Below, piece after piece: positions 1,891-61,454 of a DNA stretch of 64,000 bases. This stretch comes from an uncultured delta proteobacterium (GTDB lineage Bacteria > Desulfobacterota > Binatia > JACPRU01): positions 32,001 to 96,000 of the forward strand of contig CAVUWD010000008.1 of assembly GCA_963745025.1 (NCBI GenBank), in the 5' to 3' direction. Position numbers and translations under genes: made by a program. Under the pieces are notes generated by a model. It was not told the DNA's origin. It searched no databases and worked only from the letters and a program-made list of their open reading frames with translations. Position 1 is the stretch's first letter; every line of letters starts with the position of its first letter.

Positions 1891-1975
1891 GACAGACATG
1901 ACGAACCCCCTTCACGCTGTGCCGCGCGGAGTCCTCCAAGACGCGGCACATTGAGGATGGCCGAGGGGGAGAAGC

Positions 1976-2457
1976 ATGAGCCGCGAACAGTCCATGTCCA
2001 CCACGAGCGGCGACGAGCCCTTAGTTAGCCACCAATCCCGAGGTGTTTGCGGCGATATTTCAGCAGAACTGGGAAAACGTGCGCCATATCAAGAGCGAAC
2101 GCATGTGGTTCTTGAACACACACGCCATCACGAGCGCCGGCACCCTGTCGTTGCTCCAAACTATTCATGGCGAATTCGTACTTCAATTGTCGTTGCTCCT
2201 GTGCATGTGCGTTCTCTCGGCCATCGGAGTACTCATCAGTTTGCGCTTGAAGGCCGAGTTGGAGGAGTGCCTGGAGAAAATTCAGGCACATGGTCGCGCG
2301 GGCGCAGGTGGACGATTTCATGGCGCTCGGGCGGCTCGAAGGTCGTTGGTCACGTTACCCCGCCTTCCGGTGGGTCTTCCCGGTCCTCTATGCGTTATCG
2401 ATGGTGCTGTTCTTCGCACTCTTCGTGTATCGACTGGCACTCCGGCCTCAGCCGTGA
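1976..2457 (+). CDS. Hypothetical membrane protein, frameshifted
   Basis: Joined frames give ...FQQNWENVRHIKSERMWF...hydrophobic helices...FRWVFPVLYALSMVLFFALFVYRL; stop at 2455-2457. Confidence 0.5.
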
Positions 2458-2491
2458 GGTTGCACCGTCGCGCGTCGCCCGGACCGCCGCC

Positions 2492-4610
2492 ATGACCGTT
2501 GCTCCAGGCCGGAGTTTTCCGCTCGGTGCCACCGTCGTCGACGGCGGCGTCAACTTTTGCGTCTATTCCGGGCGCGCGAAGCAGTTGGAGCTCCTGCTGT
2601 TCAATGGCGCAACCGACGCTGACCCAGCCCGCGTCGTTCGACTCGAGGCGTCCGACTCACCGGAGCTACCATTTCTGGCACGCCTTCATTCCCGGCCTTT
2701 GCCCTGGGCAAGTCTACGCATACCGGGCGGCAGGGCCCTTCGACCCCGCGCGTGGACGCCGGTTCGATCCGGCGAAGGTACTGCTCGACCCCTATGCCCG
2801 CGCCGTCGTCGTGCCGGACGCATACGATCGCGCTACAGCAAGCCGCCCCGGCGGGAACACCGCGAGCTCGATGCGAAGCGTGGTCGTAGATCCCGACACT
2901 TACGACTGGGAAGGCGACGCCCCGCTGCGGCGGCCTTTCGCCACCACCGTGATCTATGAGATGCACGTCGCCGGCTTCACGCGGCATCCAAACTCGGGCG
3001 TCGCACCCGCACGGCGAGGCACGTATGCCGGGATGATCGAAAAGATTCCTTACCTGCAGGATCTCGGGATCACCGCGGTCGAGCTCCTCCCGGTGTTCCA
3101 GTTCGACCGGCAAGATTGCCCGCCCGGCCTGGTCAACTACTGGGGGTATTCGCCGGTCTCCTTCTTCGCGCCGCACGCCGGCTATAGCTCACGCCGCGAT
3201 CCGCTTGCCCCCGTCGACGAGTTTCGGGATCTCGTGAAGGCGCTGCATCGCGCGGGCATCGAGGTGATCCTAGATGTCGTGTACAACCACACGGCCGAAG
3301 GCAACCACGAAGGACCGACGCTGTCCTGGCGTGGCCTCGACAACGAAACATACTACATCCTCGAGGCCGACCGCGCCCGGTATGCGAATTACAGCGGCAC
3401 CGGCAACACGTTGAACGCGAATGAGGCCGTCGTGCGGCGCATGATCCTCGACAGCCTGCGCTACTGGGTGGCGCAAATGCACGTGGACGGCTTTCGCTTC
3501 GATCTCGCGTCCGTCCTGTCGCGCGACGAGTCGGGTCGGTCGCTCCCGCGCCCTCCCGTCCTGTGGGACATCCAGTCGGATCCGGTCCTGGCCGGAACCA
3601 AGCTGATCGCGGAGGCGTGGGATGCGGCCGGCCTCTACCAGGTGGGCAGCTTTCCCGGCGACACTTGGCAGGAGTGGAACGGCAAGTTCCGCGACGACGT
3701 CCGGAGGTTCGTGAAGTCGGACAACGATACCGTGACGGCCTTTGCCTACCGCTGTTTCGGCAGTCCCGATCTCTATGCCGAAGAGGAACGCGGACCGGAA
3801 CAGAGCATCAACTTCATCACCTCCCACGACGGGTTCACGCTGAACGACTTGGTGAGCTACGACGACAAGCACAACGAGGCCAACGGGGAGGGCAGCCGCG
3901 ACGGGTCCGACTTCAACCTCAGTTGGAACTGCGGGGCGGAAGGGCCGACGGCCGATCCGGAAATCGAGCGGCTGCGCGAGCGCCAGGTGAAGAACTTCCT
4001 GGCCATCACGCTGCTATCGCTCGGCACACCGATGTTGCTGATGGGCGACGAGGTGCGACGCACCCAGCGTGGCAACAACAACGTCTACTGCCAAGACAAC
4101 GAGATCAGCTGGTTCGACTGGACGCTCCTCAAGACACACCGAGCTCTCCACCGCTTCGTGAAGACCCTTGTCCGCCAGCGGCTGATGCTCGGCGACGAGC
4201 TGGGCGTCCAGGGCGTGAGCCTGAACGAGATCTTGCGTGAGGCGGAGATCCAGCTGCATGGTGTCAAGTTGAACAGTCCCGATCTGAGCCCCGAGTCGCA
4301 CAGTCTCGCGATCACGGTGCGCGGCAGAGGGCGGACGGCGCTGTTTCACGCTATGTTCAACGCATACTGGGAGCCGTTGGTCTTCGAGCTGCCGCCCGTC
4401 GTGTCAGGCGTTCATGGGCCGTGGCGACGCTGGATCGACACGTACCAAGATGCGCCGCACGACATCTACGATTGGCCCGGCGGGCCTGCGGTGGAGGGAA
4501 CGAGCTACACGTTGCAAGCGCGCTCGCTCGTGGTGCTCTTCGCCGTGCGGGACTACGATGCATGTCGGACGGCGAATGCACGATCCGATAATGATCCACC
4601 GCCAAGCTGA
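2492..4610 (+). CDS. glgX: Glycogen debranching enzyme (isoamylase, GH13), one frameshift near 2655
   Basis: [57 protein letters not shown] motifs. Confidence 0.95.
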
Positions 4611-4797
4611 CCCGGGCGCCCGGCAACAATGTCCCCATTGGAGGCCTAAAAGTGCTGGCGAGAAGCGGCTGGTTCGCGGCTCGCCCCTCGGCCACAGACA
4701 TCTACAGTAGAGCTTCAAGAGCAGACCTGAACTCCATCGTGGCTCAGGCCCAAGAGATACTGAACAACGCGTAGCGTTCAGCAGCAGCGGGTCAGCA

Positions 4798-6339
4798 ATG
4801 AACATCACCGGCAAGGTCGCCATGGTTCCACCGTTTCCGTCGAAATACCGGAGTTCCGGCATACTGCTACACGTTACGTCCCTGCCATCGCCTTATGGGA
4901 TCGGCGATTTGGGACCATCCGCGTTTTCCTGGGTCGACCGACTCCATGACAGTGGGCAAGGATGGTGGCAGGCATTACCGCTTGGGCCGACCGGTTATGG
5001 AAACTCACCATACCAATCTCTGTCTTCCTTTGCGGGCAATGGTCTGCTCATCAGCCCCGAGTCCCTAATTTCGGATGGACTGCTCAACGCGACTGACTGC
5101 GCGTCAGACTTCTCTTCAGATCTTGTCGACTACGATTCCGTTATTCCTTTTAAGGAGAAGCTGCTCGAGAAGGCATGGAGAAGGTTCGATGCTGGCGAGC
5201 GACGCGATCTCCGCTCTGCTTACGGCGAATTCTGTGCCAACCAACGAGGCTGGCTGGAAGATTACGCGCTGTTTCGAGCGCTGAAGAACAAGTTTGGCGG
5301 CTCCCACTATCTCGAGTGGCCAGAGGATTTGATGCAGCGCAAACCCGCTGCTTTAGCGAAAGCCCGGCGCGATCTTGCCAATGAAATTGATCGCTTCCGC
5401 TTCGAACAATTTCTGCTGCTGAGGCAAGCAGAACAGCTCAAGGAATACGCGCACGGCAAGGGTCTGAGCCTGATTGGTGACCTTCCATTCTTTGTTTCAC
5501 CGGATTCCAGCGATCTGTGGGCGAACCCGGAGTTATTCCTGCTGGATGAGCGGCGGCGGCCGCGTTTCGTCGCTGGAGTTCCTCCCGATTACTTCAGCGC
5601 CGAGGGACAGCTATGGGGCAATCCCGTCTACAACTGGGATGCGCGTCGTTCTACCGGCTATCGGTGGTGTCTCGACAGGATTCGCACTCTGCTGGATCAC
5701 GTAGACGTGATCCGCCTGGACCATTTCCGAGGTTTCGCGGCTGCTTGGCATGTCCCAGCCGGGGCCAAGACAGCGCAGTCCGGCCAGTGGCTAGCCGGGC
5801 CAGGAGCCAACTTTTTCGAGGCGATCCAGCGAGACCTCGGGCGCTTGCCATTTATCGCCGAGGACCTTGGCACCATCACTACCGACGTAGGACTTCTGCG
5901 CGACCAATTTCAAGTGCCAGGCACGCGAGTTCTCCAGTTCGCGTTCGACGGCAATGTTGAAAATCCTCATCTTCCCCACAACTTTCTCAGCAACACCGTG
6001 GCGTACACAGGCACGCATGACAACCCGACAACTCGCGAATGGTACGAACAATTGCCCGATTCTCAGAGACAAACGTTATGGAAATATCTCAAGCGCCGGC
6101 TCTTGAATAGTGCAGAAGCTGCACCAGCGCTGATCGAACTGGCATGGTCATCCGTGGCAGCTCTGACGGTCGCGCCATTACAGGACGTTCTTGATCTCGG
6201 CGTTGGAAGTCGAATGAACGTACCTGGTCGTGTGGGCGGAAACTGGCGTTGGCGCTTGGTCGACAAGATGTTGTCGACAGCCGCCTTCCAATGGCTGTGC
6301 GAATTGACGGAGAAGTGTAAGCGTCGCGCGAACCCCTGA
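4798..6339 (+). CDS. malQ: 4-alpha-glucanotransferase (GH77)
   Basis: RSSGILLHVTSLP, GVPPDYFS..GQLWGNP, RLDHFRGF, IAEDLG, YTGTHDN, RMNVPG..NWRWR. Confidence 0.95.
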   Translation: MNITGKVAMVPPFPSKYRSSGILLHVTSLPSPYGIGDLGPSAFSWVDRLHDSGQGWWQALPLGPTGYGNSPYQSLSSFAGNGLLISPESLISDGLLNATDCASDFSSDLVDYDSVIPFKEKLLEKAWRRFDAGERRDLRSAYGEFCANQRGWLEDYALFRALKNKFGGSHYLEWPEDLMQRKPAALAKARRDLANEIDRFRFEQFLLLRQAEQLKEYAHGKGLSLIGDLPFFVSPDSSDLWANPELFLLDERRRPRFVAGVPPDYFSAEGQLWGNPVYNWDARRSTGYRWCLDRIRTLLDHVDVIRLDHFRGFAAAWHVPAGAKTAQSGQWLAGPGANFFEAIQRDLGRLPFIAEDLGTITTDVGLLRDQFQVPGTRVLQFAFDGNVENPHLPHNFLSNTVAYTGTHDNPTTREWYEQLPDSQRQTLWKYLKRRLLNSAEAAPALIELAWSSVAALTVAPLQDVLDLGVGSRMNVPGRVGGNWRWRLVDKMLSTAAFQWLCELTEKCKRRANP

Positions 6340-8808: not shown

Positions 8809-9576
8809 CTATCTCGAGTAATCGATCAGCTCGGTAGTCGTGACGGTGCTCATCCCGGGTGCGCCGCGTGTGCCAGTGCCCGCGCGATTCGTGCCGAGAT
8901 CGCTCATGCCACCCGTCTCAGCTTTCGCCTCCGCCTTCACCATCCCAATACCCTTGACCAGCCAGTATGTGGAAGTCGTGTGCGTTGTCATGCCGGACAT
9001 CGTCGCGGCCGGCTGGTTTCCGTCGTTTCTGTTCACCTCGGGTATCGGTGTGCCAATTTCGTTTTCGGCGGTGATCTTCAGCGCCTCGAACGTCCCGGCG
9101 GGAACAGTCACTGACTCTGTACCGTCCACCTTATGGCGCGTCTTTATGTCGAAGATCAACGGTTCCGTGCTGGCCATCTCGATCGTCTCAGTTGTCTTCC
9201 AGGTGTAGCCAGCCTTCAGCTTCAGCGCGGGCGGCAGGAACGAGCCGGAGTGCCTCACGAACTTCACATCCGTCCCCTCGCGATCCTCTCCTAGCTTCGT
9301 GAAGTCGAGTGAGATCGCTCCACCGTCGCAATCGACCTCCATTTGCAACTTCTTTGCCGGCTCGCTTTTGTCGTGCATCCACGCAATCGCGACAGTCGCC
9401 TTGTCCTTATTGACGCTCTCGACTTTCCAAATCGACTCGTGGCCATTGGAGGACTTGTAGTGACGGGTGAGGCCCTTCCTCAGCGGCAAGTAAGGATGAT
9501 CACAGGCGGCGTCTGCAGCAGGACCCGAGAAGAGCGCGGCGGTGACGAGAACAACGGACGTGAACAACAGTCGCAC
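8809..9576 (-). CDS. Secreted hypothetical protein with ESVTVPAGTF motif (TapB/DUF3108-like)
   Basis: GGAGG RBS before GTG 9576; signal peptide; PYLPL, TVPAGTFEALKI and YWLVKGIGMVK motifs. Confidence 0.65.
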   Translation of the reverse strand: MRLLFTSVVLVTAALFSGPAADAACDHPYLPLRKGLTRHYKSSNGHESIWKVESVNKDKATVAIAWMHDKSEPAKKLQMEVDCDGGAISLDFTKLGEDREGTDVKFVRHSGSFLPPALKLKAGYTWKTTETIEMASTEPLIFDIKTRHKVDGTESVTVPAGTFEALKITAENEIGTPIPEVNRNDGNQPAATMSGMTTHTTSTYWLVKGIGMVKAEAKAETGGMSDLGTNRAGTGTRGAPGMSTVTTTELIDYSR

Positions 9577-10299
9577 GATACCTCCAATCTTGCGTGTCCG
9601 AGGAGGGCGAGTGCGGGCCCGCGCTCCCGGCAAAAGTGGTTGTAACTCGCTTGCGCGCGGGCGGCGTCTTGGGTCGCGAGCGCCGCGTCGCGCTGGACGG
9701 GGTCACGGCCTTTCTCATCTCAAGCTCGGCAACGTTTCTCCAGGTGCTTTTCGCGCCGTCTCGCGCGGTCGGCTATGTCCCTGAGTGGGTACCGAAAGCC
9801 TTGGCAGCTAACACGCATGAGCGCGTCGGCGGCATAATCCGAACCACAGGCTCCAAGCAGATCGCCTTGTGGCTGCGCGACGGCCTGTCTTCTCATCTTC
9901 GCTACCTGGCTTCTCGTGTTCGAGAGCTGACCCCCATTCGCCAACGGCATGATCGGCCATCATCCCCTTACGATTTCGTCCAGTATATACCGTGCTTGAT
10001 ATTTTCGACCCAAACGCGGCCAGCCGAGTCCTGGAATCGCCTATAACTCCATTGGCAGCCTTCATCGAGGAGTCGTCCGGTGACGGTACTTCCCAACCGT
10101 CCTGACACAGTCCGGTTTTGCGCAACTCCGGGTGAGTCGGCTGATCGGGAGTTCGGCCACTTGGCCAGATTGTAGCATTCCTGCTCTTTCGCTACTCGAT
10201 CAACGGACTGGGGATTGGTGGCAGAAGGTTTCGCCATCTCTTCGCTGGGTAATGCTGCGGGCAGCCGTGCCTGAGAACCGCGCCAGATCACCGCGTCAG

Positions 10300-10715
10300 C
10301 CGGGGGGCCTGGCCCTTGTTCCGCTGCCCCAGGCCGATCGACGGGTCGAACGCGGTGCGCCGCTCCTACTTCAGCGGCGAGGTGCAACAGCTGGACGAGC
10401 ACGAGCGTCTCGCCGCGCGCCAGTTCATGCTCGAGCAGCTCGAGCGCGCGGGAGTCACCGAGGTCGACCCGCCTTTTACCACGCCGGCGCGAAGCGAGTC
10501 GCTTGCTTGCCGTCGTCGTAGTGCTTCGTGATCGCGCCGATCGAGGTCTTGCTCGCCGAGGGAGCCCGAGCGCGAGTCGGTGCGCATGATCCTGCACGAG
10601 ATCGGGCACGCGATCTCAGATCTGCCGGTGCGCGAGTCCGGCAAGTCACTCGCTCGGCTCGAAGCGGACGGCACTGTTCCAGAAACCTCGGGGCGTGAGC
10701 AACACGCCGAGTCAA
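10300..10715 (+). pseudogene. Possible degraded zinc metallopeptidase fragment
   Basis: ILHEIGHA (HExxH) at ~10590-10612; the surrounding frame is broken by stops and frameshifts. Confidence 0.3.
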
Positions 10716-10755
10716 GGCGTTGTCCTGTCTTTGTCTACAAGAAACGAAAGAGGCA

Positions 10756-10785
10756 CCGGGCGCTATCTGTTAAGATAGCGCCCGG
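10756..10785 (-). terminator. Stem-loop, probable intrinsic terminator of the minus-strand recombinase fragment
   Basis: Perfect 13-bp stem CCGGGCGCTATCT/AGATAGCGCCCGG with 4-nt loop; T-rich run follows on the minus strand. Confidence 0.6.
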
Positions 10786-10813
10786 CTCTTCTTGTTCCGC
10801 CAAGTCGAGATAC

Positions 10814-11029
10814 TTAGATCGTGTCATGGTCGGGACAAGGCGCATCGGGCCGATGGGCTTCCGGCGATCTCTGCCCACGGAGAACCTTCCGAACGTTCTC
10901 AAGCGACCACGGCCTCTGCTGGAGCGTCTGCCAGCCGTTCTCGTTGAGGCGGCTTGCGATATCGGCCGGGGACAATCCTGCGGCCCCGAGCTCGCGGATG
11001 ATGCGGTGAACGTATGCAGATAACAACCT
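10814..11029 (-). pseudogene. C-terminal HTH piece of a second large serine recombinase
   Basis: LLSAYVHRIIRELGAAGLSPADIASRLNENGWQTLQQRPWS aligns with LLPPFTQRKARKLAAQGLRPCEVGRRLNELELFTKTGRPWT of the intact LSR. Confidence 0.75.
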
Positions 11030-11687
11030 ACTGTTCTGGGTACTCTCCCCACGATCTATATGCGAAGTCCACGGTTACGTCATGCAAGTTGCTTACCCTG
11101 GCGGGCGTGCTGCGCAGATCCGGTGCCCCGGGCTGAACCTAAAGGGTGGGCCTACCTGCATTACGCTGCCGGCGGGGCCTCTTGAACGCAGCATCGTCCC
11201 GTTGGCCCTGGCGCATCTGACGCCGGTCGGCATCTCGATTCTTCGCCAGGAATGGGAGGATCGAAAGAGGGGGAACAAAGAGCTGGCGGGCCTATCGGCG
11301 GAGACGCTCCGCCTGGCGAAGGAGCGGCTCAAGCGGACACGGCTTCTCTTCCTCGCTTGTGATCCATCCCGATCATCGAGAAGCCAATGCCATCCTTGAA
11401 ACTGAGCTCGACAACCAAGCTGCCGAAGTAAGACGGCTCGAAGAGGCTGTTCAAGACGATCAAGGCGAGCGTCCCGATTCCTTCAACGGGGCGGTGTGGA
11501 ACGAGATCGAACGCTTGTGGTCTAACGTAGCCGCGATTTGGGCCGCGTCCACGACGACCGTTGCGGATCGAATCGAGTTACTCGCAGCAATAATGGAACG
11601 CCTGGTTGTGCGACGGGATCGAGAGCGAATTTGCGGCACGATCGTGTGGCGAGACGGCACAGCAGGGACGCCTTTCGAAGGCAGGTT
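11030..11687 (+). pseudogene. Zinc-ribbon/coiled-coil piece of the second LSR, inverted relative to its C-terminus
   Basis: CEVH..MQVAY..RC..C..LPA and WAASTTTVADRIELLAAIMERLVV..IVWRD match CPVH..MMIHY..YC..CVSVPA and FMAETTTNEERKEVIRALVERVTV..IKWVD of the intact LSR. Confidence 0.75.
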
Positions 11688-11768
11688 TCATCGTGACCGA
11701 AAAGCGTCGCCAACCCCTGTCCCACAAGGCTTTCAGCAACTCACCCGCCCTTCACGAGCACACACACT

Positions 11769-12570
11769 TTGGAGAAGACCCACTGCAGATGGGAGGATCC
11801 GGTGGGTCTGAAGGAAAAGAGCGCGGATGTAGGACGAGCGCCCGCGCCGAGAAGAGCCACAACAGGGCGTTCCGACCTGATTGAACGGCTATCGCGCGTC
11901 GGGGTCTTCGGCATTGGGTCAGCCGGTCCGCCAGACGCTTCTGAGCTGCAGGAGCTCATACGCGAGGTCGAGACGGCCCTAGTTGAGCAGCCGACCCTAG
12001 AACTCCGCTATCGGCTTGCGACTGCGATCATGACATACGTATTCTTTCACGTCCGAGGGGACGCACGAGTACTTTGGCTGAATCGCGCAGACGGACTCTT
12101 GCGACAGGCCCTCGCGGAGGCCGAGCGCCTCGGTTCAGCGTCGCCGGTTGCGCTGCCAGAAGTCCGCGCCGTGTTGTCGCGGCTTCTCGTGGAATCGCCG
12201 ACCGTCCGCGATCTGGCGACAGCGGAGAAGCAGCTGCGTGCGACCTGGAAAGAGACGACTGAGTACCGACCGGAATTGTGCTCGCTTGTAAGTGCCGTCT
12301 ATAAGCAAGGGCGCTATGCCGAAGCCGCGGAACTGGCGCTGGAACTGCACCAAAGAGCCACAAAAGACAGCGAGTGGTGCGACAACCCGCCGCCCGCCGC
12401 TACAGCTCGCAGTTAGTGCACTGCGAGCTGAGGTGAGACGACTGAAGAAAGCAAACGACGCGCGGGCTGCCCGAGCTGTCTCCGAGCGACTCTGTCGTCT
12501 GCCCTATGCGAGTGACAATGATCGGAGGATCCTCGAGCGACTTCGCGTGGAATCTCCGGCAACGGCCTGA
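11769..12570 (+). CDS. Helical-repeat (TPR-like) hypothetical protein, frameshift near 12395; start uncertain
   Basis: All-helical ORF with LVSAVYKQGRYAEAAELA TPR-like segment; continues in a second frame to 12570. Confidence 0.5.
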
Positions 12571-13003
12571 ACGTGCCAAGTGGGTCGCGTGAAGCTTCGG
12601 AGCCACGCCCAGCCACGACCCGAGGCTATGACGCTCAAGCCTACGATACGTTTCGAGCGCACTTCAATTAGACCAAGCTCGCTGAGCTCGACATAAACCG
12701 CGCTTCTGGATGGTCGTCTCCAGGATGATTGACAGCCAGCGTTTTCTCTTCTGCTCGGCCGAGCGTGCGATTCGGTTCGATCGAGAGCCCGATGTGTCTC
12801 AACAAAGAACGTCCTCACTTGCCCGAGATGCCGACTGCGAGAGCCATTAGATCATTCGCAGTCAAACTGTGAGCATCGTTCATACTGAGTGCGCACTACC
12901 TCCAAAACCGCTCTTTCATTGCGCCGCGCAAACTTTAGTAAACAAAAACCATTCGCTGCGCCATAATAGTAGATAGATAGGACCGAAGGCCGAGGTCTGT
13001 CTG

Positions 13004-13041
13004 AAGCCCCGGGAGGAATGCTCCTCTCCGGGGCTTTTTTT
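13004..13041 (+). terminator. Terminator-like hairpin (copy 1) upstream of small ORF
   Basis: AAGCCCCGG...CCGGGGCTT followed by a T run. Confidence 0.65.
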
Positions 13042-13095
13042 CTTTCTCGGCCACAACAGGTCGCCGCCAGAGGGCGAGCGATCGGGAGGTGAGTC

Positions 13096-13251
13096 ATGTC
13101 CAGAGTCGTTTGGAAGAGAGTCGGAGAGGTAGTGCTGGATGTCCTTGTGGTGGCGGTGGTCATCGTGGCGACTGCCCTCGTAGAAAAGCTCGCACGAGCG
13201 GTGGGCGACTTCGGCTCCGGTGGTGAGATCGATGAAGGAGAGAGACCGTAG
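13096..13251 (+). CDS. 51-aa single-TM peptide (not in ORF track)
   Basis: GGAGGTG RBS; MSRVVWKRVGEVVLDVLVVAVVIVATALVEKLARAVGDFGSGGEIDEGERP*. Confidence 0.65.
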   Translation: MSRVVWKRVGEVVLDVLVVAVVIVATALVEKLARAVGDFGSGGEIDEGERP

Positions 13252-13329
13252 GCCCACCAACCGTGCACCAACGTAGCAGCGACGATCGGTGAGCGCTCAC
13301 GCACTCACCGATTGCCAGGTCCACCAACC

Positions 13330-13370
13330 GAAGCCCCGCCGGGAACACCCCGCGCGGGGCTTCTTCTTTT
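13330..13370 (+). terminator. Terminator-like hairpin (copy 2) upstream of Cys-rich ORF
   Basis: GAAGCCCCGC...GCGGGGCTTC plus TTCTTTT; same stem base as copy 1. Confidence 0.6.
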
Positions 13371-13388
13371 CGCAATCCGGAGGTGCGA

Positions 13389-14141
13389 ATGCGAGTAACC
13401 CTTGTTCGAAAAAGCGCGAACCGAAAAACCGGGTCCATCCCAGTCTCGATGAGCCCGAAATCGACTTGTCCTTTGACCTGTCCACTTCGGAGAAATGGCT
13501 GCTACGCCGAGCATGGCCCGGTCGGCTGGCATTGGAAGCGGCTCTCCCTTGGCGACACCGGCATCAGCTGGAAGGCATTTCTGGAGAACGTCCGACACCT
13601 ACCGAAAGATACGCAATGGCGCCACAACGTCGCAGGGGATTTACCCGGCCGCGGCGACAAGATCGACACGGAAAGACTCGCCGAGCTCGTCGAGGCAAAC
13701 CGCGGTCGGCGAGGCTTCTCGTATACGCACAAGCCTGCGCTCCCCGAGAACCTGGCGGCCATACGACGAGCGAACCGCGCGGGATTCACGATCAACCTAT
13801 CGGCCGACAATCTGGCCGAAGCCGACGAGCTCGCCAGGAAGAACGCGGGCCCGGTCGTCGTGATTCTTCCGGCCGACGCGGCTTACAACCACGTCGAGCG
13901 GACGCCCGCGGGGCGGAAGGTCATCATCTGCCCGGAGAGCTACCGCAACGACGTCACCTGTGCTTCCTGTCGGCTCTGCGTAGACGCGAAGCGCGAGACG
14001 ATCATCGGCTTTCCCGCCCACGGGCCAGGATTTCGAAAGGCCGAACGCGTGGCGCTCGCGGGGAAGGGAGGTGACAATGCCCTACGCGTCCGTTTACCGG
14101 ATTTCCCTGGTCCGCGACGGACGGCTACCGTACAAGACTAG
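13389..14141 (+). CDS. Phage-type Cys-rich protein (Gp88/DUF7227-like)
   Basis: NRKTG.IPVS..TCPLTCPL..GCYA, WRHNVAGD, FSYTHK, GFTINLS, CP..TCASCRLC, IIGFPAHG; GGAGGTG RBS. Confidence 0.7.
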   Translation: MRVTLVRKSANRKTGSIPVSMSPKSTCPLTCPLRRNGCYAEHGPVGWHWKRLSLGDTGISWKAFLENVRHLPKDTQWRHNVAGDLPGRGDKIDTERLAELVEANRGRRGFSYTHKPALPENLAAIRRANRAGFTINLSADNLAEADELARKNAGPVVVILPADAAYNHVERTPAGRKVIICPESYRNDVTCASCRLCVDAKRETIIGFPAHGPGFRKAERVALAGKGGDNALRVRLPDFPGPRRTATVQD

Positions 14142-14319
14142 GCAGTCGAATGACGTCGCGCACTGCGTGAGGCCGCCTTTGAAGGGCGTCGACCGGGAGC
14201 AAACCGAGATTACGCGCAGGCTTCGCCGGGGGGGCGACGTTATCGGCGTTCGCGTTTTGGACGACGTAATCATAGGCGCCGATGGCCATCGGAGCTTCGT
14301 TGGCGCGGGCTACTGCTAA
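14077..14319 (+). pseudogene. radC: RadC/JAB-domain gene with internal deletion
   Basis: YRISLVRD..DREQ joined directly to ITRRL..G..IGVRVLDDVIIG..SF; the HNHPSG core is absent. Confidence 0.8.
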
Positions 14320-14521
14320 TCCGAACAACCGAACGCAGCCGCAGACGACCGAGCTTCCGGTTCAGCATCAAAGTTTCCGCCTGAATCGATCAATCGATCC
14401 CGTCTCCGTCCCGCCCGCCACATCTCCAAGTCTCGTCCTTCGGCTTTCCATCCATGACCGGCAGCAGCGCGAACTCTATACGGCTCGCGTTGCTGCCGGT
14501 CCCTCCTTCTTTTTTTGCTTC

Positions 14522-16375
14522 TTACTGCAGAAGCGGACGGTCCGTATCGCTGCCTGGAGCGGCAACGCCGGTAGGTGGCTTTAGTGTGTTGACTTTCTTG
14601 TTCGTCACATGGCGCAGGAGCTGCGAGGCTGTCCCTGCCGTCCACGGTCGACCTGTCTTGGTGAAAAGCTCTAGCTCGTTTAGTCGACGCCCGACCTCGC
14701 AGGGGCGGAGACCTTGCGCGGCAAGCTTACGGGCCTTCCGTTGAGTGAACGGTGGAAGAAGGATTGTGAGTTCGTGGTCCGGCTCGTCGTCGACCCACTT
14801 GATCCGGAGGCGGATTGTCTCGTTCGTCCGCTCGAGGACTGTGACGCGCTCGACCAGAGCACGGATGACTTCCTTTCGCTCCTCATTGGTGGTCGTCTCC
14901 GCCATGAAGATCTCGAGGAGCTGGTCGGCGATCTCAAGAAGGCGGTCGAGAGCGGTGTCGTCAAATTTCAGGATCTCCTGTCGCTCATTCTCTACCGCCA
15001 GCTTGACCTGCTCGCGATTGTCTTTGACCTCTCGCAAGGCCTGCTCAAGCTCCTGGACCACCTCGACGTTCGTCGGGTCGACGATCCTCACTCTGTAGCG
15101 GAGCTCCTCAAGCTCCCTCTCGAGGGCGTTCATTTGCAACCGCCGCAGGTGCTCCCCCGCGGCGAGGTCTCGCCGTGCTCGGTCAAGCGCTTCGCGGAGA
15201 GCATTCAAGCGCGGAGCCGTGAGGCGTGCGAGAACGGCGTCTCGAATGGCCGGATCCACCCGTCGGGCGGGTACGCTGACGCAAGACCGGCGGCCGCGGT
15301 CTCGCTCGCCCTTACAGTAGTAGGCGGGCGCCCGGACGCAGTCAGTCCGAGCATCGCCGTAATGGATCATCATCCGCCTGCCGCCTTGCGTGCCGACATG
15401 AACGGGGCAGTCGATGAGCCTCTCTAGGAGGGCCGCGCCGCGGCCAGCGGGTCGACCGTCGCCCTTCTTTGTATTGTCGTCGAGGATCTTCTGTATCTCG
15501 AACCAATCCTCGGTCGAAACGTAAGCCTCGTGATGCCCTTCGATGACAATGCGCTCTTCCCGAGGGGTCGGGATGCGACGAACCCGCCCACCCGGCGTCT
15601 TTCTGGCCGGATCGATTTGCGATTTTCCGAATTCGTACGCGCCCGTATAGGAGAAATTGCGATAGATATCGAGCAACAGGGACTCATTCGCTTCTGTTGG
15701 CCCCTTCCTGCCAGGGAACCGCATACCGAGGTCGTTGAGCGCACGGATCGTTTTCCCCACGGAACGGAGCTTGAGGATCAACTGGAACGCGGTCCGCAAG
15801 GACAGCTGAACCCACGTTCTCGGATCCAAGGCCCAGGTCTTCTGCATGTAGCCCATCGGGGAGCGGGTGACTGACTTTCCCGCCTTGGCTTTCGCGACCC
15901 GCCCCCGGCGCATCGTCTCGGAGCGATAAGACGTGTCGATGTCCGAAACGACGGCCATGAGCTTCGCGTAGACCAGATGCCCCGACACGCGCATGTCGTA
16001 GACGCGGCCATCGAGGGCCACGAGCACGTCGAATGCGGCACAGATGTTGAGAAGGTGAAACCAATTTCCTGCTTCGCGTCCGAGGCGCGTGAAGTCGACG
16101 GCGATGAGGATCCCGACTTTGCCTTCTTGGATCAGCTGTATGATCCTCTGATAGCCCTCCCTCAGAGCCGTTGTTCCCGACACTCCGAGATCCTCGATGA
16201 CGAGAATCAGAGTCTCGATCCACCCCCAGAGGAGGGCGTACCGCTTTTGATTACGCTGTGCCTCCGTGCTGCCGGTATTATTTTGAACCTGGAACTCCGT
16301 GCTCTGCCGGACGTAGACGATCGCGAGACGATTCAGATGCTGGTCCTTGATTTCTTGAGGCCTCGATTCGGGCAC
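14522..16375 (-). CDS. Large serine recombinase (resolvase + recombinase + Zn-ribbon + C-terminal HTH)
   Basis: IVYVRQST catalytic Ser, EDLGVSG, DFTRLGR, PMGY, YTGAY, IEGHHEAYV, CPVH; 617 aa uninterrupted. Confidence 0.93.
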   Translation of the reverse strand: MPESRPQEIKDQHLNRLAIVYVRQSTEFQVQNNTGSTEAQRNQKRYALLWGWIETLILVIEDLGVSGTTALREGYQRIIQLIQEGKVGILIAVDFTRLGREAGNWFHLLNICAAFDVLVALDGRVYDMRVSGHLVYAKLMAVVSDIDTSYRSETMRRGRVAKAKAGKSVTRSPMGYMQKTWALDPRTWVQLSLRTAFQLILKLRSVGKTIRALNDLGMRFPGRKGPTEANESLLLDIYRNFSYTGAYEFGKSQIDPARKTPGGRVRRIPTPREERIVIEGHHEAYVSTEDWFEIQKILDDNTKKGDGRPAGRGAALLERLIDCPVHVGTQGGRRMMIHYGDARTDCVRAPAYYCKGERDRGRRSCVSVPARRVDPAIRDAVLARLTAPRLNALREALDRARRDLAAGEHLRRLQMNALERELEELRYRVRIVDPTNVEVVQELEQALREVKDNREQVKLAVENERQEILKFDDTALDRLLEIADQLLEIFMAETTTNEERKEVIRALVERVTVLERTNETIRLRIKWVDDEPDHELTILLPPFTQRKARKLAAQGLRPCEVGRRLNELELFTKTGRPWTAGTASQLLRHVTNKKVNTLKPPTGVAAPGSDTDRPLLQ

Positions 16376-16530
16376 GATTGGTTCCTCCTTTCGTTCTCGA
16401 GCACCTTGACTGCGAGGCGAGCGAGGAGCCGCTCTGCTCGATTGAGCGCCTCGCTCCCCAGAGAGGGTTCTGCTGGTGGTGCCGGAGCGGAGCTCTTGGT
16501 CCGCGCCCGGGCTCGCTTGGATGGATCCAT
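16333..16530 (-). CDS. Small ORF overlapping the LSR start (candidate accessory/directionality factor)
   Basis: AGGAGGTG RBS; MDPSKRAR...AERLLARLAVKVLENERR. Confidence 0.55.
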   Translation of the reverse strand: MDPSKRARARTKSSAPAPPAEPSLGSEALNRAERLLARLAVKVLENERRNQSCPNRGLKKSRTSI

Positions 16531-16650
16531 CGATTCACCTCCTGGAAGAAGCAAAGAGCGGAAGGGTCGCGCGCCGACGCCGAGGCGCCAGGCGTACCTC
16601 TCCCGCCCGTGTTCACCGAGAGTATGGCGCGCGCGCCGGGGATCTTTAGG

Positions 16651-16702
16651 TTCCGGTGCATTTCCTAGGTAATTCTCGAATTAGGCCTGAGATGCACCGG
16701 AA
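16651..16702. mobile_element. 52-bp symmetric att-like site for the LSR
   Basis: TTCCGGTGCAT-N8-TAATTC-[TC]-GAATTA-N8-ATGCACCGGAA, symmetric about a central dinucleotide. Confidence 0.7.
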
Positions 16703-16723
16703 TATTCCGCGGCTGTTCGACGC

Positions 16724-17311
16724 CTATGCATCCTTCTTCGCTGACGCTTTCAGCAGCAGGCGGGTGAAGGTCTCAGCCAGGGAACTCACGGCGTGCAGCA
16801 GATTAGGGTCCGGAGGTCGCATGGGTGTGGCTGCGACGTCGACATCCCCTGCCGCTGCATCCGCTGATGCTTCGCCGGTAGGGCGTGGCTGCTTTCTGGA
16901 AGGGCTGTTCGGTGTCGAACTCGATGGGGAAGGGGGTCGGCGCGACACGGCGCTGGGCGCCCCGCCGTCGCCGTTGTCCTTATTGGGAGGATTGGGCTCA
17001 GGGTGATGATCGCCGTCGGACGGGCGAGCATCGCCAACCGGATCGTCGGCATTGCTTGCCAGTGGTGACATGACGCGCTCGGCCACCGTGGTGGACGTCG
17101 TCGCCAGCGGCGGCGTCGTGGTGCTCGGCGAGAGAGGCTGGTCTGCTCTGGGCGGAGCTTCAGTTGCTTCCCTCACGTGGCGATGGACGTGCTCATGGTG
17201 CTGTTTTCCGCCGAAGGGGAGGGTGCCTTGGCGCTCGCGATGCTGATCACGCTGCGAATCGCCGATGATGCTCGAGCGAGTGAGAGAAGTACGGCGATCT
17301 TTAGCGGCCAT
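16724..17311 (-). CDS. Low-complexity hypothetical protein downstream of AlpA
   Basis: 195-aa ORF overlapping the AlpA stop; Pro/Ser/Thr-rich with an amphipathic C-terminal helix. Confidence 0.45.
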   Translation of the reverse strand: MAAKDRRTSLTRSSIIGDSQRDQHRERQGTLPFGGKQHHEHVHRHVREATEAPPRADQPLSPSTTTPPLATTSTTVAERVMSPLASNADDPVGDARPSDGDHHPEPNPPNKDNGDGGAPSAVSRRPPSPSSSTPNSPSRKQPRPTGEASADAAAGDVDVAATPMRPPDPNLLHAVSSLAETFTRLLLKASAKKDA

Positions 17312-17903
17312 CGCCTACTCCGCCGTCCCCGCCGCCAACCTGACGGCGCTCCTGGACCCACCTATCGACCTCGGTCCGGAGCCAGCCGACGCTTCGGGAC
17401 GAGATCTTCCTCCTCGGAGGGAAGAGCCCGCGCTTCTCCGCCCTCCAGACGGTGCTTCTGGCGAGCCCCGTTATGGTACGAAGTTCCTTGAAACGGACGT
17501 AGCGGTCCCCGTCACCATCTTTTGGATGAGGGTGGGCCGCCTCTGAGTCTCTCGCTACGTTCTCTGTGGGGAGGAGATTCTCTTTGGAGACAAGGTGGCG
17601 GACGTAGTCCTTCAGGGCGGTGATCGACCTCTCGAAGGCCTTGGTCAGCTCGCGTTGCTGCTTCGCGAAGAGACGCTCGACCTCTTCCAGCGAGACGGCC
17701 GTGGGGGACTTCTTCGGGGCGGGCGCTCCTAGTCGTAGGGCACGCGACCTGCCAGAAGCCGGCGGTACAGAAGCCGCGTCATAGACGGTACCCCCCCCGG
17801 CAGCGTCATGAACTCTACGGCGAGAGTCCGCTTCTTGTGCTGGGTTGCCGGGATTTACGCTTCCAAAGGAACAACCTGTGCTGGGCATTGAACGCTCCCA
17901 CAA
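17301..17903 (-). CDS. alpA: AlpA family regulator/excisionase with N-terminal extension; start uncertain
   Basis: RYVRFKELRTITGLARSTVWR..KRGLFPPRRKIS.RSVGWLRTEVDRW. Confidence 0.85.
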   Translation of the reverse strand: MWERSMPSTGCSFGSVNPGNPAQEADSRRRVHDAAGGGTVYDAASVPPASGRSRALRLGAPAPKKSPTAVSLEEVERLFAKQQRELTKAFERSITALKDYVRHLVSKENLLPTENVARDSEAAHPHPKDGDGDRYVRFKELRTITGLARSTVWRAEKRGLFPPRRKISSRSVGWLRTEVDRWVQERRQVGGGDGGVGDGR

Positions 17904-18093
17904 CAGGCGTCCTTCGGTTTTCCCGACCAGACGCGGATTTCAGCCCTTATCGGCGGCCGCTACCGTGTTGCTAATAATCAAATTACCCGCTGAGCGGAAC
18001 TTGGTCAAGGAAACGTGGTGCCGCTCGTGCGAGCGGACTCTTATGAGAGCGAGAGATACGAAGTGAACAAAAGGTAGACCTGATGTCTGATAT

Positions 18094-19305
18094 TCAGACC
18101 GCGGCCTCGAGCGAGATCACGTTCGACGGCGTCTTCGTCCGCGTCCCTGCGATGATCTCGCGGAGTTCCCGATCCCATCTTGTAAGGGCATCCCGCTTGT
18201 CCGCGTCGTAAGAGTGGCGATCGTAGATCGCGGTCACGCCCTGCTCGACGTGGTTGAGGATCTTGGCGACCACGAGCCGCGGGATCCCGATAGAGGTCAT
18301 GTAACTTGCGGCCGTCCGCCGAAGATCGTGCGGCGTGAAGTTAGGGATCCCAAGATCGTCGACACTGCGTCGAACGGCATGATCCGGCGCGGTGGCGCCC
18401 ATATGGTCCTTCTTCGGTGAGGGAAAGACCCACTGCGAGTCTTTGGCAAGCTCGCGCGCCTCGCGGAATAGCGCGATCGCTTGTTGGCCCAACGGAACAC
18501 GGTGGGGGAGTTGGTTCTTCACGCGCTCGGCGGGGATGGTCCACCATCCGTTTGCCAGGTCAATATTTTCCCACCGCGCTGATACGATCTCGCCCTTGCG
18601 CTGAGCGGTCACCAACATGAGCTTCAACACGATCCTGCTCGCAGGACTCATCGCGGCTTCATCGAGAGTTGCCCAGAACAGCCGGATCTCGTCGGGGCTC
18701 AACACTCGGTCGCGCCGATTCTCCTTCCCGGGCGGCTTGACCTGCGTGCATGGGTTGGCCGGGACAAGGTCGCGAGACAGCGCGAAGTTGAACATCCTCC
18801 TCACCACGGCGAGCGTGCGGTTGGCCGCGATGGGGGAGCCGCGATCGACGATTCGGTCGAGCAGCGCGATGACGTCCGACCGTGTGATTTCTTTCGCCTT
18901 GCTCCACCGCCAGAGTGGCAGAATGTCCTTTTCCAGAATCCGCTCGTCCTCTCTCCACGATCGCTTTCGCGGCTTCGCCCAGCGCTCGAGGTACTCCGTC
19001 GCAAGGTCTCCTACGGTTGGTGCGGTGCGATCTACCCGACGCTGCCGAACGATCGCGGCGCCGGGATCGAGGCCCTGCTCGAGGTCGGTGAGCGCTTTGC
19101 CGTGAGCTTGGTGAGCATGAGCGACCGTCATGGAAGGGTAGGTACCCAGTGTCATGCGGCGTGAGCGGCCTGCATGATGGTAGACGAACACCCACGACTT
19201 CGTGCCGTTCGGCGTCACACGGATGCCGAAGCCATTGCCCTCCCAAAACTCATAGCGAGCGTTCTTGACCTTTAGGTTCTTGATGGCCCTGTCCGTGAAC
19301 TTCAT
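18094..19305 (-). CDS. Tyrosine integrase, P4-like, with N-terminal arm-binding domain
   Basis: MKFTDRAIKNLK..GFGIRVTPNGTKSW; catalytic R (TAQRKGE), K (VKN), HDLRR, LNH, Y (AIYDRH). Confidence 0.95.
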   Translation of the reverse strand: MKFTDRAIKNLKVKNARYEFWEGNGFGIRVTPNGTKSWVFVYHHAGRSRRMTLGTYPSMTVAHAHQAHGKALTDLEQGLDPGAAIVRQRRVDRTAPTVGDLATEYLERWAKPRKRSWREDERILEKDILPLWRWSKAKEITRSDVIALLDRIVDRGSPIAANRTLAVVRRMFNFALSRDLVPANPCTQVKPPGKENRRDRVLSPDEIRLFWATLDEAAMSPASRIVLKLMLVTAQRKGEIVSARWENIDLANGWWTIPAERVKNQLPHRVPLGQQAIALFREARELAKDSQWVFPSPKKDHMGATAPDHAVRRSVDDLGIPNFTPHDLRRTAASYMTSIGIPRLVVAKILNHVEQGVTAIYDRHSYDADKRDALTRWDRELREIIAGTRTKTPSNVISLEAAV

Positions 19306-19321
19306 CTTGGTCCGTTGGTCT

Positions 19322-19343
19322 GGGGTAGCAATTGGGGTAGCAA
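19322..19343. repeat. Integrase arm-type direct repeat (left arm)
   Basis: GGGGTAGCAA twice, 12-bp period, between int start and tRNA core. Confidence 0.7.
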
Positions 19344-19484
19344 AATTGACGTTGCAATGCATGAATTTCTGTGAGACATCGTGAAACAAGAAATACCATA
19401 TAATTACCGATAATCAAAGGCAAATGAGTCTGTTCATTGACACCTATTGAATAGTCCTGAACGGCTAAGAAACAACGATGAGAT

Positions 19485-19531
19485 CTGATTCGTAATCAGC
19501 AGGTCGCCGGTTCGATTCCGGCGGGTGGCTC
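19485..19531 (+). mobile_element. att core: 3' half of tRNA-Thr(CGU), not a full tRNA
   Basis: CTGAT-TCGTAAT-CAG anticodon arm region, GCCGG-TTCGATT-CCGGC T arm, GGGTGGCT acceptor strand; no D arm or 5' strand upstream. Confidence 0.9.
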
Positions 19532-19537
19532 TTTCAA

Positions 19538-19600
19538 AATCAATGATTTATGTTACAGCCACAGATCGGAAGGAGCTTTTCAGGTAGCAAATAGGTAACA
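19538..19600. promoter_or_regulatory. IHF-like site and right arm-type repeat
   Basis: AATCAATGATTTA fits WATCAANNNNTTR; AGGTAGCAAATAGGTAACA repeats the left-arm motif. Confidence 0.6.
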
Positions 19601-19709
19601 CGCAGCGAGTATGGATCTCGAGGTTGACGAAGGAGATTCCCTCCGATCTCGATCTCGAGTACCGATTCCTGTGCGCTCCCCGGCGCGCCCAGCATGCGCC
19701 GATGATCCC

Positions 19710-30632: not shown

Positions 30633-31545
30633 TCACTCCGCGTTCCTATGTGCCTTCGCTTTTGATAGCGCTTCGAAGCCGGAGATGACGTCGAACAGTT
30701 CCTCGTCGATGCCACTCTGGCGCAAACGGTGGAATGTCCCGTTGAGGTTCTCCAGCAATTCGTCGATGTTTTTGTCGGCGCGTTGCATCGCCGCCAGGCG
30801 GCTCGCGTTCTCGCTCGCGAGGGATTCGGCGCACGCCCGGAAGAGCGAGACGAAAAGATATTCGCGGATGAGCGCCCGCAAGGTCGCGGTGCCGCCACCC
30901 ATGACCTCGGGCAAGTTTCTCGTCGGCCAGGGAAGTTCGGCCAGCTTGCGTCGCCAGTTGCTCGTCCAGCGGCAGCAGCCGCTGACTGACGGGCGCATAG
31001 AGCGCCCCGGACGTGCGGGCGGTTGTGGAAGAGGTGGAGCTCGGTGACTTCACCCTTGGCTCGTGGCGCGTCTCGCTCTCGACGAGAATCTGCCCGACGA
31101 GCGGGGTGATGGCCTTGACGGAATTCGGCACGGTGAAGAGTCCGATCAGCGGCAGGCCCGCGTCCGCCAGGCGCGCATGAACGCGCTCACCGACGGCCCA
31201 GACCTGGGGTTTGCCGGGCAGAGCGGCCAGGGTCTTGATCGCATAATCGGCCACCACGTCATTGAACTGGCCCACCAGTCCCTGGTCGGAACCGAACACG
31301 ACCGCGCCAATCGCACCCGCATCGGTTTGTCCTTTCCGTTCTGCCATCAAGGCCGCCGGCTCGCTTTCCCGAAAGCATGCGCCCAACCCCAGCTCCACGG
31401 TCCGATAGTAGTCGGCCAACGCGCGCACCGATTTCTCGTATTGTCCGATGCTCGAGGCGGCCAGGGCCTTCATCGTGCGGACGACGGATTGGAGATCACC
31501 GGCACTGCTGATCTTTCGGCGCAGGCTCGCCGTGGTGTCGCTCAT
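30633..31545 (-). CDS. atpG: N-ATPase gamma subunit, frameshifted
   Basis: [43 protein letters not shown]. Confidence 0.92.
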
Positions 31546-33153: not shown

Positions 33154-33171
33154 TGGCTCTTTGTTTCGGGC

Positions 33172-61148: not shown

Positions 61149-61454
61149 TCACACGGCTGTGCGCGTGCGGAGCCAGGCCTCTATCTCGTCGGCAATCCAG
61201 CCGACGGCCCTGGCGGACAGCTGTCGCCGCCGAGGAAACTGGTTCGCTTGCTCCAGCCGCCAGATGGTGCTCCGCGACAAGCCGGTCATCGCGCGTACGT
61301 CGGGAAAGCGAATCGACCGCGTCGCCGACGTCAGCGGCGTGCTCGATGGCGGCTCTTCGCTTCCTCGGCGAGACCCAAGCTCGTCGAGACCCTTCGCGGG
61401 GCTCACGCCGCTTGCGCTGTCGCAATCATGAGGGCGTTTCTCTTGGCCGCGCAC
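61149..61454 (-). CDS. alpA: AlpA family regulator/excisionase (second copy); start uncertain
   Basis: IRFPDVRAMTGLSRSTIWRLE...FP..RQL..RAVGW...EI.AW. Confidence 0.88.
   Translation of the reverse strand: MRGQEKRPHDCDSASGVSPAKGLDELGSRRGSEEPPSSTPLTSATRSIRFPDVRAMTGLSRSTIWRLEQANQFPRRRQLSARAVGWIADEIEAWLRTRTAV

Follow-up and report, generated by a model that had tools for sequence, protein, structure and literature searches.

The window analysed here is a stretch of 64,000 nt of DNA from an uncultured delta proteobacterium (genome G000, contig C8; G000:C8:32001-96000). Between positions 14522 and 19602 it carries, on the minus strand, genes for a P4-type tyrosine integrase (IntA), an AlpA-type DNA-binding protein, a low-complexity open reading frame (ORF), a small ORF named Y and a large serine recombinase (LSR). 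We consider it probable that two separate things lie side by side in this region, namely a seam in an array of islands at a tRNA-Thr target and an LSR module whose palindrome is a control site internal to the module. Taken as a whole, the locus is an accumulation of decaying mobile DNA of a fairly ordinary sort, in which stacked tRNA islands are found together with an LSR module and its small partners. An earlier note, made from the letters and ORFs of this DNA, had proposed a dual-recombinase system with two unused attP-like sites. A built-in choice of two integration enzymes, with both sites kept in reserve, would be a new mobile-DNA design; the evidence points instead to known processes, i.e. 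island stacking at one tRNA target and the nesting and decay of mobile modules, and the two-enzyme novelty is unsupported.

The features that carry this reading are given below (aa, amino acids).

14522..16375, minus strand: LSR, intact and stop-codon-free, 617 aa; Pfam Resolvase and Recombinase, phrog_95 integrase
16333..16554, minus strand: small ORF Y, 73 aa, or 65 aa from the probable start (ATG at 16530); its stop overlaps the LSR start
16651..16702, no strand: imperfect palindrome of 52 bp, located between X and Y; the site that is conserved in the LSR module
16724..17311, minus strand: low-complexity ORF of X type, 195 aa, with an acidic tail and a C-terminal helix, LLHAVSSLAETFTRLLL
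17301..17903, minus strand: AlpA-type DNA-binding protein, longest ORF 200 aa, domain at residues 133-183; Pfam PF05930, E 2.1e-15
17986..17998, minus strand: hairpin in the intA-alpA interval, terminator-like, its tail rich in T, from a terminator scan
18094..19305, minus strand: IntA, tyrosine integrase of P4 type, 403 aa when started at the ATG at 19305; three Pfam domains; phrog_1 integrase, E 7e-80
19321..19343, plus strand: putative P arm of island A, two copies of TGGGGTAGCAA at a spacing of 12 nt, from repeat comparison
19485..19534, plus strand: displaced 3' fragment of tRNA-Thr(CGT), which starts in the anticodon loop, reaches the 3' end and includes 3 further nt; 100% identical to C14:21436-21485, inside the intact gene
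19582..19602, plus strand: putative P' arm of island B, CAGGTAGCAAA and TAGGTAACAC, 11 nt apart, matching the repeats beside a second integrase, IntB, in spacing and at 18/21 positions

The co-oriented minus-strand cluster that the earlier note had described (tyrosine integrase, AlpA, low-complexity ORF, small ORF and LSR) is borne out, with Pfam matches for the integrase, AlpA and the LSR. The integrase ORF spans 18094-19389 on the minus strand, the ATG at 19305 being the probable real start, and its product carries the domains Arm-DNA-bind_3 (PF13356, E 8.1e-20), Phage_int_M (PF22022, E 3.9e-09) and Phage_integrase (PF00589, E 3.2e-29). Candidate R...HxxR...Y residues can be read by eye in the stretches ARWENIDL, HDLRRTAAS and TAIYDRH of the translation. 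AlpA scores 56.7 bits against the PF05930 model, for a cut-off of 21. Neither Y nor the low-complexity ORF, whose coding signature is weak, has a family match in Pfam, PHROG or NCBIfam.

The tyrosine-integrase site

No tRNA gene was found in the window by ARAGORN or Rfam. The plus-strand segment at 19485-19534 reproduces, at 100% identity, the last 47 nt of tRNA-Thr(CGT) followed by 3 nt, and it begins in the anticodon loop. The sole intact tRNA-Thr(CGT) gene that we found lies on contig C14 (C7, C8, C11, C14, C15 and C19 are all contigs of genome G000). Where the earlier note had placed tRNA-Thr at the tyrosine site, there is thus a 47-nt 3' fragment, while the gene itself is elsewhere.

The same note had described arm repeats on either side of the core, and these are indeed present: TGGGGTAGCAA occurs twice at 19321-19343, and a related pair, CAGGTAGCAAATAGGTAACAC, occupies 19582-19602. 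A second integrase of the contig, IntB, was located by tblastn at C8:100235-101377 on the minus strand (window-equivalent 68235-69377); it is 49-50% identical to IntA and carries the same three Pfam domains. About 230 nt past its start lies a 48-nt tRNA-Thr fragment (C8:101608-101655, plus strand) that is 100% identical to the window fragment. IntB and its fragment are 50 kb downstream of the IntA fragment, and the two fragments are on the same strand; further same-strand fragments, at C8:149678 and C8:150316, have no integrase beside them.

The IntA-side repeats, TGGGGTAGCAA (GGGGTAGCAA) twice with a spacing of 12, recur about 50 nt downstream of the intact tRNA gene on C14 as GGGTAGCAG / GGGGTAGCAA, also with a spacing of 12. 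To the right of the window core, the pair CAGGTAGCAAA / TAGGTAACAC (shorter cores AGGTAGCAA / AGGTAACAC) has a spacing of 11, as has the IntB-side pair CAGGTAACACA / TAGGTAACAA (shorter cores AGGTAACAC / AGGTAACAA), and the two pairs are equal at 18/21 positions by a hand count from the printed sequences. Another B-type arm copy is found on C7. Since the arm repeats sort by element, the window site reads as the attR of one island fused to the attL of the next. On these comparisons the tyrosine site is best described as a seam in a tandem island array, the fragment being the core common to attR(A) and attL(B). The arm repeats and the second integrase with its fragment speak for such a junction and against the unused attP that the earlier note had seen here; the tandem array, which it had listed as one option, holds for this site, with IntB, a second identical fragment and arms that sort by element.

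The sequence of events that we propose is as follows. A P4-type island (A), now decayed, would have entered tRNA-Thr(CGT), with IntA and AlpA forming its integrase-proximal (right) end, and a second island (B), some 50 kb long and carrying the P4-type integrase IntB, would have entered the same tRNA-Thr target. The resulting order would be tRNA - P'(A) ... IntA - P(A) - fragment - P'(B) ... IntB - P(B) - fragment. The fragment at 19485-19534, with P(A) on its left and P'(B) on its right, would then be used twice and resemble a whole attP; its attP-like look would arise because P(A) and P'(B) share one core.

Islands of the CP4-57/P4 type, with int and alpA, are known tRNA-gene islands. Islander (PMC4383910) recognises a tandem array by the presence of a separate integrase and a separate fragment for every member, and this is what is found for the IntA and IntB units, each with an integrase and a tRNA-gene fragment. 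The Islander signature of a single island asks for an intact tRNA gene and its displaced 3' fragment, equally oriented on one replicon and with an integrase gene between the two; here fragment and integrase lie in the window, and the intact tRNA-Thr is on C14, a contig that is not linked to that of the window. The locus resembles arrays of P4-type tRNA islands in its arm-binding integrase, its AlpA-type small protein, its crossover in the anticodon loop, its displaced 3' tRNA fragment and the presence of an integrase and a fragment for each member. It differs from them in that the intact tRNA of the array is on another contig, that the window integrase is at the end far from the tRNA gene, beside the displaced fragment, that as many as 9 copies of the fragment occur in the genome, flanked by arms of at least three kinds, and that the islands are heavily decayed. 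The arm repeats pair each island of the array with its own integrase, which makes the locus a clean, checkable example for island mapping.

The surroundings were also compared with other genomes. No close relatives of IntA were found at E 1e-60 in 20 other genomes. In G001, a genome of the same genus, a 91% match is confined to the initial 1.3 kb of the window; the other matches are at 66-80% or are short tRNA-fragment matches, and the genome is too rearranged to define an empty site. Public sequencing runs were searched as well (shares at most 0.16). The contigs from four of these runs were scattered and of low depth, and although some were identical to the stretch, none showed a joint; the reads are too sparse to bear on excision, empty sites or circles.

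The 9 copies of the tRNA-Thr(CGT) 3' fragment, on contigs C7, C8, C14, C15 and C19, are counted besides the intact gene, and the genus carries unusually many tRNA-Thr fragments. One kind of left flank is common to the copies at C19:28546, C7:108191, C8:149678 and C14:19984, and three copies have a GTGTGCCA repeat pair on their right. In G001 the fragment has 17 matches, on many contigs, but there is no close relative of IntA.

The serine recombinase and its module

The LSR carries Resolvase (PF00239, E 2.5e-16) and Recombinase (PF07508, E 4e-17) domains. Its catalytic columns are conserved in the alignment (R23/S25/Q29 and D94/R97/R100), with a VYVRQS motif in which R23 and S25 are invariant. 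The zinc-ribbon family PF13408 gave a Pfam match in neither the LSR nor its nearest relatives (P0002-P0004); its sequence does show a cluster of Cys and His at residues 323-363, and a long stretch of helical character.

This is a rare protein. Among 5.8 billion proteins its nearest relative is 56% identical (P0002, on a 105-kb contig), and the next ones are 46% (over half the length) and 36% identical. Nine loci with 31-39% identity came from a search that took in 61 relatives together with 401 genomes from the class, a comparison set that is small and distant. No matches to the LSR were found at E 1e-60 in 400 further genomes of the phylum, and no relatives in two scans of assembled-genome contigs or in a viral scan; a metagenome scan gave two short, distant loci only, which were left out of the comparison, and the plasmid and phage collections hold relatives only at or below 32% identity. 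The ten LSR loci thus compared are the window copy and those of G001, G050, G051, G059, G453, G462, G563, G612 and G640. They were oriented on the LSR before their upstream DNA was compared, and the ORFs of the other genomes were called by a crude script.

Upstream of the LSR, the comparison revealed a recurrent order, HTH_17 gene - X - inverted repeat (40-52 bp) - Y - LSR. The HTH_17 (helix-turn-helix, HTH) proteins of the module have Pfam matches in 6 loci and are 48-62% identical to each other. X, a small acidic protein with a terminal helix resembling LxxVLxxLxRL, is present in 8/8 homolog loci with enough upstream DNA, and the low-complexity ORF of the window matches the X of these 8 other loci by position and by C-terminal pattern. 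The core of Y, LARLA(V/I)RA, aligns in 8/10 loci (LLARLAVKVL in the window), and a ninth instance can be made out by eye in the sequence of G051. Divergently upstream of the HTH gene, four loci have an unknown gene coding for 330-470 aa, named U, with mutual E values of 1e-44 to 1e-89:

L027:7281-8273 (minus), L028:7236-8627 (minus), L039:7974-9275 (minus) and L038:12233-13648 (plus): gene U, always divergent from the HTH gene of the module

U has no Pfam family at the thresholds used; a single member shows a faint likeness to a zinc finger (E 0.004). We considered U as a diverged tyrosine integrase and rejected this (BLASTP E 1.3, no Pfam integrase match).

In its full form, as found in relatives, the module is U (divergent) | HTH_17 - X - palindrome of about 50 bp - Y - LSR. 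The window copy has neither U nor the module HTH_17, and the HTH slot is taken by AlpA, which gives no BLASTP match to the module HTH_17 proteins and is 46% identical to the AlpA of island B. By gene content, the window copy is the module minus its upstream part, abutting a P4-type int-alpA pair: it keeps X, the palindrome, Y and an intact LSR directly downstream of alpA. IntA and AlpA would have come to lie next to the LSR module by insertion or rearrangement, and not as parts of a designed two-enzyme unit.

The relatives also give hints of mobility. In G051 (L027 7390-10920) and G563 (L038 9924-13530), a unit of roughly 3.5 kb made of U, HTH_17, X, palindrome, Y and LSR lies just upstream of a syntenic peptidyl-prolyl isomerase (PPIase) gene, in two genera and in opposite orientations. 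The two orientations could have come about by separate insertion events at a target that is symmetric, or by inversion; they fit what a small mobile unit would do. The flanks of the LSR unit in G051 and in G563 were searched for repeats and gave none that convinces, and inspection by eye of nine loci gave no conserved motif downstream of the LSR stop.

The palindrome upstream of the serine recombinase

The earlier note had assigned to the LSR a fully symmetric site. The site is present at 16651-16702, and its symmetry is partial: the 25-nt arms, on either side of a 2-nt centre, TC, are 76% (19/25) complementary and perfect only in the outer 11 nt. A scan of the 5.65-Mb genome at a cut-off of at least 18/25 gave 1123 matches, overlapping spacer settings being counted apart; such palindromes are common in the genome, and chance alone therefore does not single out the window site. 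It counts as real because a homologous site holds the same place in related LSR loci. Indeed, the inverted pair GCAT[CT][CT]...[AG][AG]ATGC is found upstream of the LSR by regular expression in 4/10 loci, near-variants are seen by alignment in 4 more, and a palindrome scan at 17/25 or better gives a match upstream of the LSR in 3/10. The site invariably lies between X and Y, and in most homolog loci its right arm ends at the ATG of Y.

With respect to a serine-integrase attP, the geometry agrees, i.e. an imperfect inverted repeat of about 50 bp with a non-palindromic central dinucleotide; the split into attL and attR upon integration was not found. In 9/9 loci with enough flank, the X side and the Y-LSR side are contiguous. 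Six of the ten LSR loci are on contigs of 90-855 kb, and since these contigs are at least 90 kb long, such loci are taken as integrated copies. Because integrated copies never show a split site, we take the palindrome to be a fixed site of control or protein binding. The claim that it is the unused attP of the LSR is not borne out, given the continuity of module DNA across the site. The palindrome would most likely be the promoter/operator of the Y-LSR operon, bound by the well-conserved HTH protein of the module or by the LSR itself, which would then regulate its own operon.

Two known kinds of site are useful for comparison. The attP of the A118/LI integrase, in the model outlined in PMC3783163, has about 50 bp, two inverted 25-bp half-sites and a 2-nt crossover, its outer parts being the most conserved. 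The window palindrome is like it in size, half-sites, 2-nt centre and conserved outer arms. It is unlike it in that sites of the window type are flanked by module DNA in all nine loci with flank and overlap the start of the downstream ORF in relatives, as would a fixed internal control site. For TnpX of Tn4451/Tn4453, the joint of the circular form creates the promoter of the recombinase, and this joint exists only in the excised circle. The window likewise has a recombinase gene after a symmetric site whose arms could carry promoter elements; unlike the Tn4451 joint, its site is whole within chromosomal contigs.

Association with tyrosine integrases

If the LSR and the P4-type integrase were a single dual-recombinase system, as the earlier note had suggested, their genes should be found together elsewhere. 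Among the nine related LSR loci, none has a P4-type int and alpA beside the LSR, and a conserved Tyr-Int/AlpA/LSR unit is absent from all of them; what the co-occurrence check did find is that 3/9 are near unrelated tyrosine integrases. For the most part this is the outcome that the earlier note had itself named as refuting its proposal. In G612 and G640 the tyrosine integrase is divergent and upstream of the HTH gene, and that of G640 runs into tRNA-Val; in G001 it lies 5 kb downstream of the LSR and is followed by tRNA-Asn. The following LSR modules are near the integrase end of other tRNA islands:

L040 (G640), 539-5004: LSR module and tyrosine integrase, with tRNA-Val
L026 (G001), 9084-17366: LSR module and tyrosine integrase, with tRNA-Asn

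These neighbouring integrases are unlike one another and unlike IntA (IntA versus G640, 25% identity; G612 versus G640, E 0.005). None of the three, from G612, G640 and G001, has a P4-type arm domain, and they differ in position and strand too. In G051, G059, G462 and G563, U is present and no tyrosine integrase was found in the flanks examined. The proposal of two integration routes in one element is not supported, on three counts: the LSR belongs to a separate module, the palindrome is internal to that module, and the 9 related loci lack the P4-type int and AlpA. The distribution fits a module that would move on its own and often end in other mobile DNA.

Several observations pull away from the reading of an island seam beside a separate LSR module. 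Concerning the array, the intact tRNA-Thr is on another contig and the contig ends do not overlap (no contig-end overlaps were found in the genome assembly, and C14 is not linked to C8), so that the array is not one continuous stretch. Leftward of the window fragment, C8 extends for 51 kb and contains no other tRNA-Thr fragment, and the left end of island A falls outside what the contigs define. Concerning the separation of the two parts, alpA and X overlap by 11 nt, as in a single operon, and the proximity of a tyrosine integrase in G612, G640 and G001, two of which abut a tRNA gene, may amount to a looser recurrent association. Concerning the palindrome, its geometry (52 bp, 25-nt half-sites, TC centre, conserved outer arms) fits a serine-integrase attP, and it sits upstream of the recombinase operon, as an attP would. 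A simple scan found no sigma-70-type promoter at the palindrome or anywhere in 14200-19700 (0 found, 1.0 expected). The window palindrome is about 120 nt from the start of Y and does not abut it, and the palindrome is unrecognisable in 2/10 loci (G001 and G050).

Part of these observations would be accounted for by one element that carries both recombinases by design, in which the palindrome is the intact attP of the LSR and entry is via IntA at tRNA-Thr or via the LSR elsewhere; in the window, IntA would have been used and the LSR site left whole. Such an element would explain why the palindrome has the size and symmetry of the attP modelled in PMC3783163, why the LSR is intact within decayed DNA, why the genes are co-oriented with alpA overlapping X, and why three of nine related loci are near tyrosine integrases, two of these beside tRNA genes. 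We judge it distinctly improbable. A used attP should be split in G051, G059, G462 and G563, which have no tyrosine integrase in their flanks, and the palindrome is unsplit in these as in all related loci with flank. Moreover, the neighbouring tyrosine integrases are mutually unrelated and differ in position and strand, none of them has a P4-type arm domain, and the window copy lacks the HTH_17 and U of the module.

The three loci near tyrosine integrases also allow another view, to which we give a similarly small chance. The module X - palindrome - Y - LSR would be a specialised rider on the integration ends of other elements, landing beside, or recruited by, unrelated tyrosine integrases that target tRNA genes (tRNA-Thr here, tRNA-Val in G640, tRNA-Asn in G001), and it would give its carrier a second, serine-recombinase route via the palindrome. 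Were this true, the pairing of LSR and tyrosine integrase would be a recurrent functional partnership and not an accident. The reading of a seam beside a separate module, with the palindrome as its control site, is the one that we retain below.

Small ORF Y as a predicted partner of the serine recombinase

The structure of a complex of Y and the LSR was predicted, and the score was 0.67 in three runs, for 0.00 in the best of three controls. The score mark is reached by 116/157 solved complexes versus 2/215 mismatched pairs, a calibration that is only rough, since the Y-LSR prediction used its own alignments. Contacts agree between the Y-LSR runs at 96% or more, and the predicted local distance difference test (pLDDT) value of the partner is at least 57. 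The predicted contacts link residues 24-49 of Y, a conserved helix, to residues 381-400, 467-507 and 527-529 of the LSR, segments that flank a predicted coiled coil (the long helical stretch, taken as such).

For the SPbeta integrase, PMC11722253 describes a directionality factor that binds the second DNA-binding domain as well as the segments from which the coiled coil emerges at its base. Y is thus predicted to bind the LSR like a directionality factor, and we picture it as a small partner that would grip the base of the LSR coiled coil, as recombination directionality factors (RDFs) do. SprA/SprB of SPbeta and SpoIVCA/Skr of skin are presented, in the sections concerned of PMC6957869 and PMC11722253, as units of a serine integrase and an adjacent small directionality factor. 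The window module is like them in having an LSR with a small neighbour gene, whose product is predicted to sit on the second DNA-binding domain and the coiled-coil base. It is unlike them in that Y has no sequence likeness to a known RDF in Pfam, PHROG or NCBIfam and lies immediately upstream of the LSR, overlapping its start, and in that the LSR clade has no PF13408 match.

A Tn3-type resolvase acts on a res site upstream of its own gene (tnpR), which it also represses. The predicted placement of Y at the binding place of a directionality factor, its co-transcription with the LSR, a single, ever-intact site directly upstream of the recombinase operon and a carrier that sits in a tandem array would suit a comparable role, in which the LSR and Y act as resolvase or excisionase on copies of the palindrome, so that tandem arrays or dimers of the island that carries them are trimmed or resolved. 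We regard this as very improbable: the palindrome is single-copy in the genome, where no second copy of either arm was found with up to 5 mismatches in 25, and serine integrases are reported in PMC11722253 and PMC3783163 not to recombine two attP sites. This rare LSR clade, with its fixed small partners and its conserved 50-bp site, offers a ready candidate enzyme, partner and DNA site for control studies.

Neighbouring features

The DNA around the LSR and in island B holds the following further features.

10868..11026, minus strand: relic of the C-terminal HTH of an LSR (residues about 539-593 of the LSR clade); tblastn with P0001/P0002, 38-44% identity; Pfam Recombinase match on the ORF 10814-11026
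11040..11679, plus strand: relic of the middle part of an LSR (zinc-ribbon and coiled-coil region, residues about 318-545), without the catalytic domain; tblastn with P0003, 34-36% identity, E 1.9e-18; P0002 and P0011 match too
13383..14141, plus strand: DUF7227 gene, convergent with the LSR; PF23872, E 8.9e-88; phrog_2554, unknown function
14071..14319, plus strand: remnant of a RadC-like JAB-domain gene, with the last 38 residues of the domain; PF04002, E 1.6e-05
14453..14504, no strand: G+C-rich terminator-like hairpin, 17-nt arms 94% complementary, with a T-run on the plus strand, 18 nt past the LSR stop
61149..61454, minus strand: AlpA gene of island B; PF05930, E 1.1e-18

The hairpin at 14453-14504 is absent from the list of a simple terminator scan, its 12-nt loop being above the limit of that scan, and it is unrelated in sequence to the palindrome upstream of the LSR. 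The presence, to the left of the window LSR, of two relics that belong to the same LSR clade suggests, from sequence likeness, that such elements may have arrived repeatedly. The two relics, at 10868-11679, are back to back on opposite strands, and the region 9600-13300, with its poor coding signal, resembles a graveyard of earlier insertions.

These relics, together with a pair of short repeats, bring up one further alternative, namely that alpA, the LSR and what lies between them (14434-17923, 3.49 kb) form an element of their own, nested in island A and bounded by a 16-nt direct repeat, CGTCCTTCGG(C/T)TTTCC, much like the short repeats of SCC elements. The repeat matches at 15/16 positions (14434-14449 and 17908-17923), its copies lie just outside the LSR hairpin and 5 nt outside the longest alpA ORF, and the size of the segment is like that of the roughly 3.5-kb unit of G051 and G563; repeated arrivals, to which the nearby relics point, would agree with it. 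Repeats of this quality are frequent, however, with at least one 15/16 direct repeat in 65% of 300 random 4-kb windows of the genome, and by a rough estimate the chance of a repeat falling in both boundary zones is about 0.07, so that the pair by itself is not significant. In addition, the left copy is between the radC remnant and a T-run hairpin that resembles the terminator of that gene itself, the AlpA inside the segment is of P4 type and not the HTH_17 of the module, and an empty site was not found in the genome. A nested element with these boundaries is, on balance, unlikely.

Island B contains several genes that look broken, spanning 30646-44792, for which decay and assembly frameshifts are both possible: an AcrB/CusA-type pump in two ORFs (41613-43127 and 43320-44792), a phosphoketolase in two pieces (39176-41076) and fragments of ATP-synthase subunits (30646-32600 and 36253-37593). 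The stretch with the DUF7227 gene, the RadC remnant and the hairpin (13383-14319 onward) has partial copies on C19, C14 and C11.

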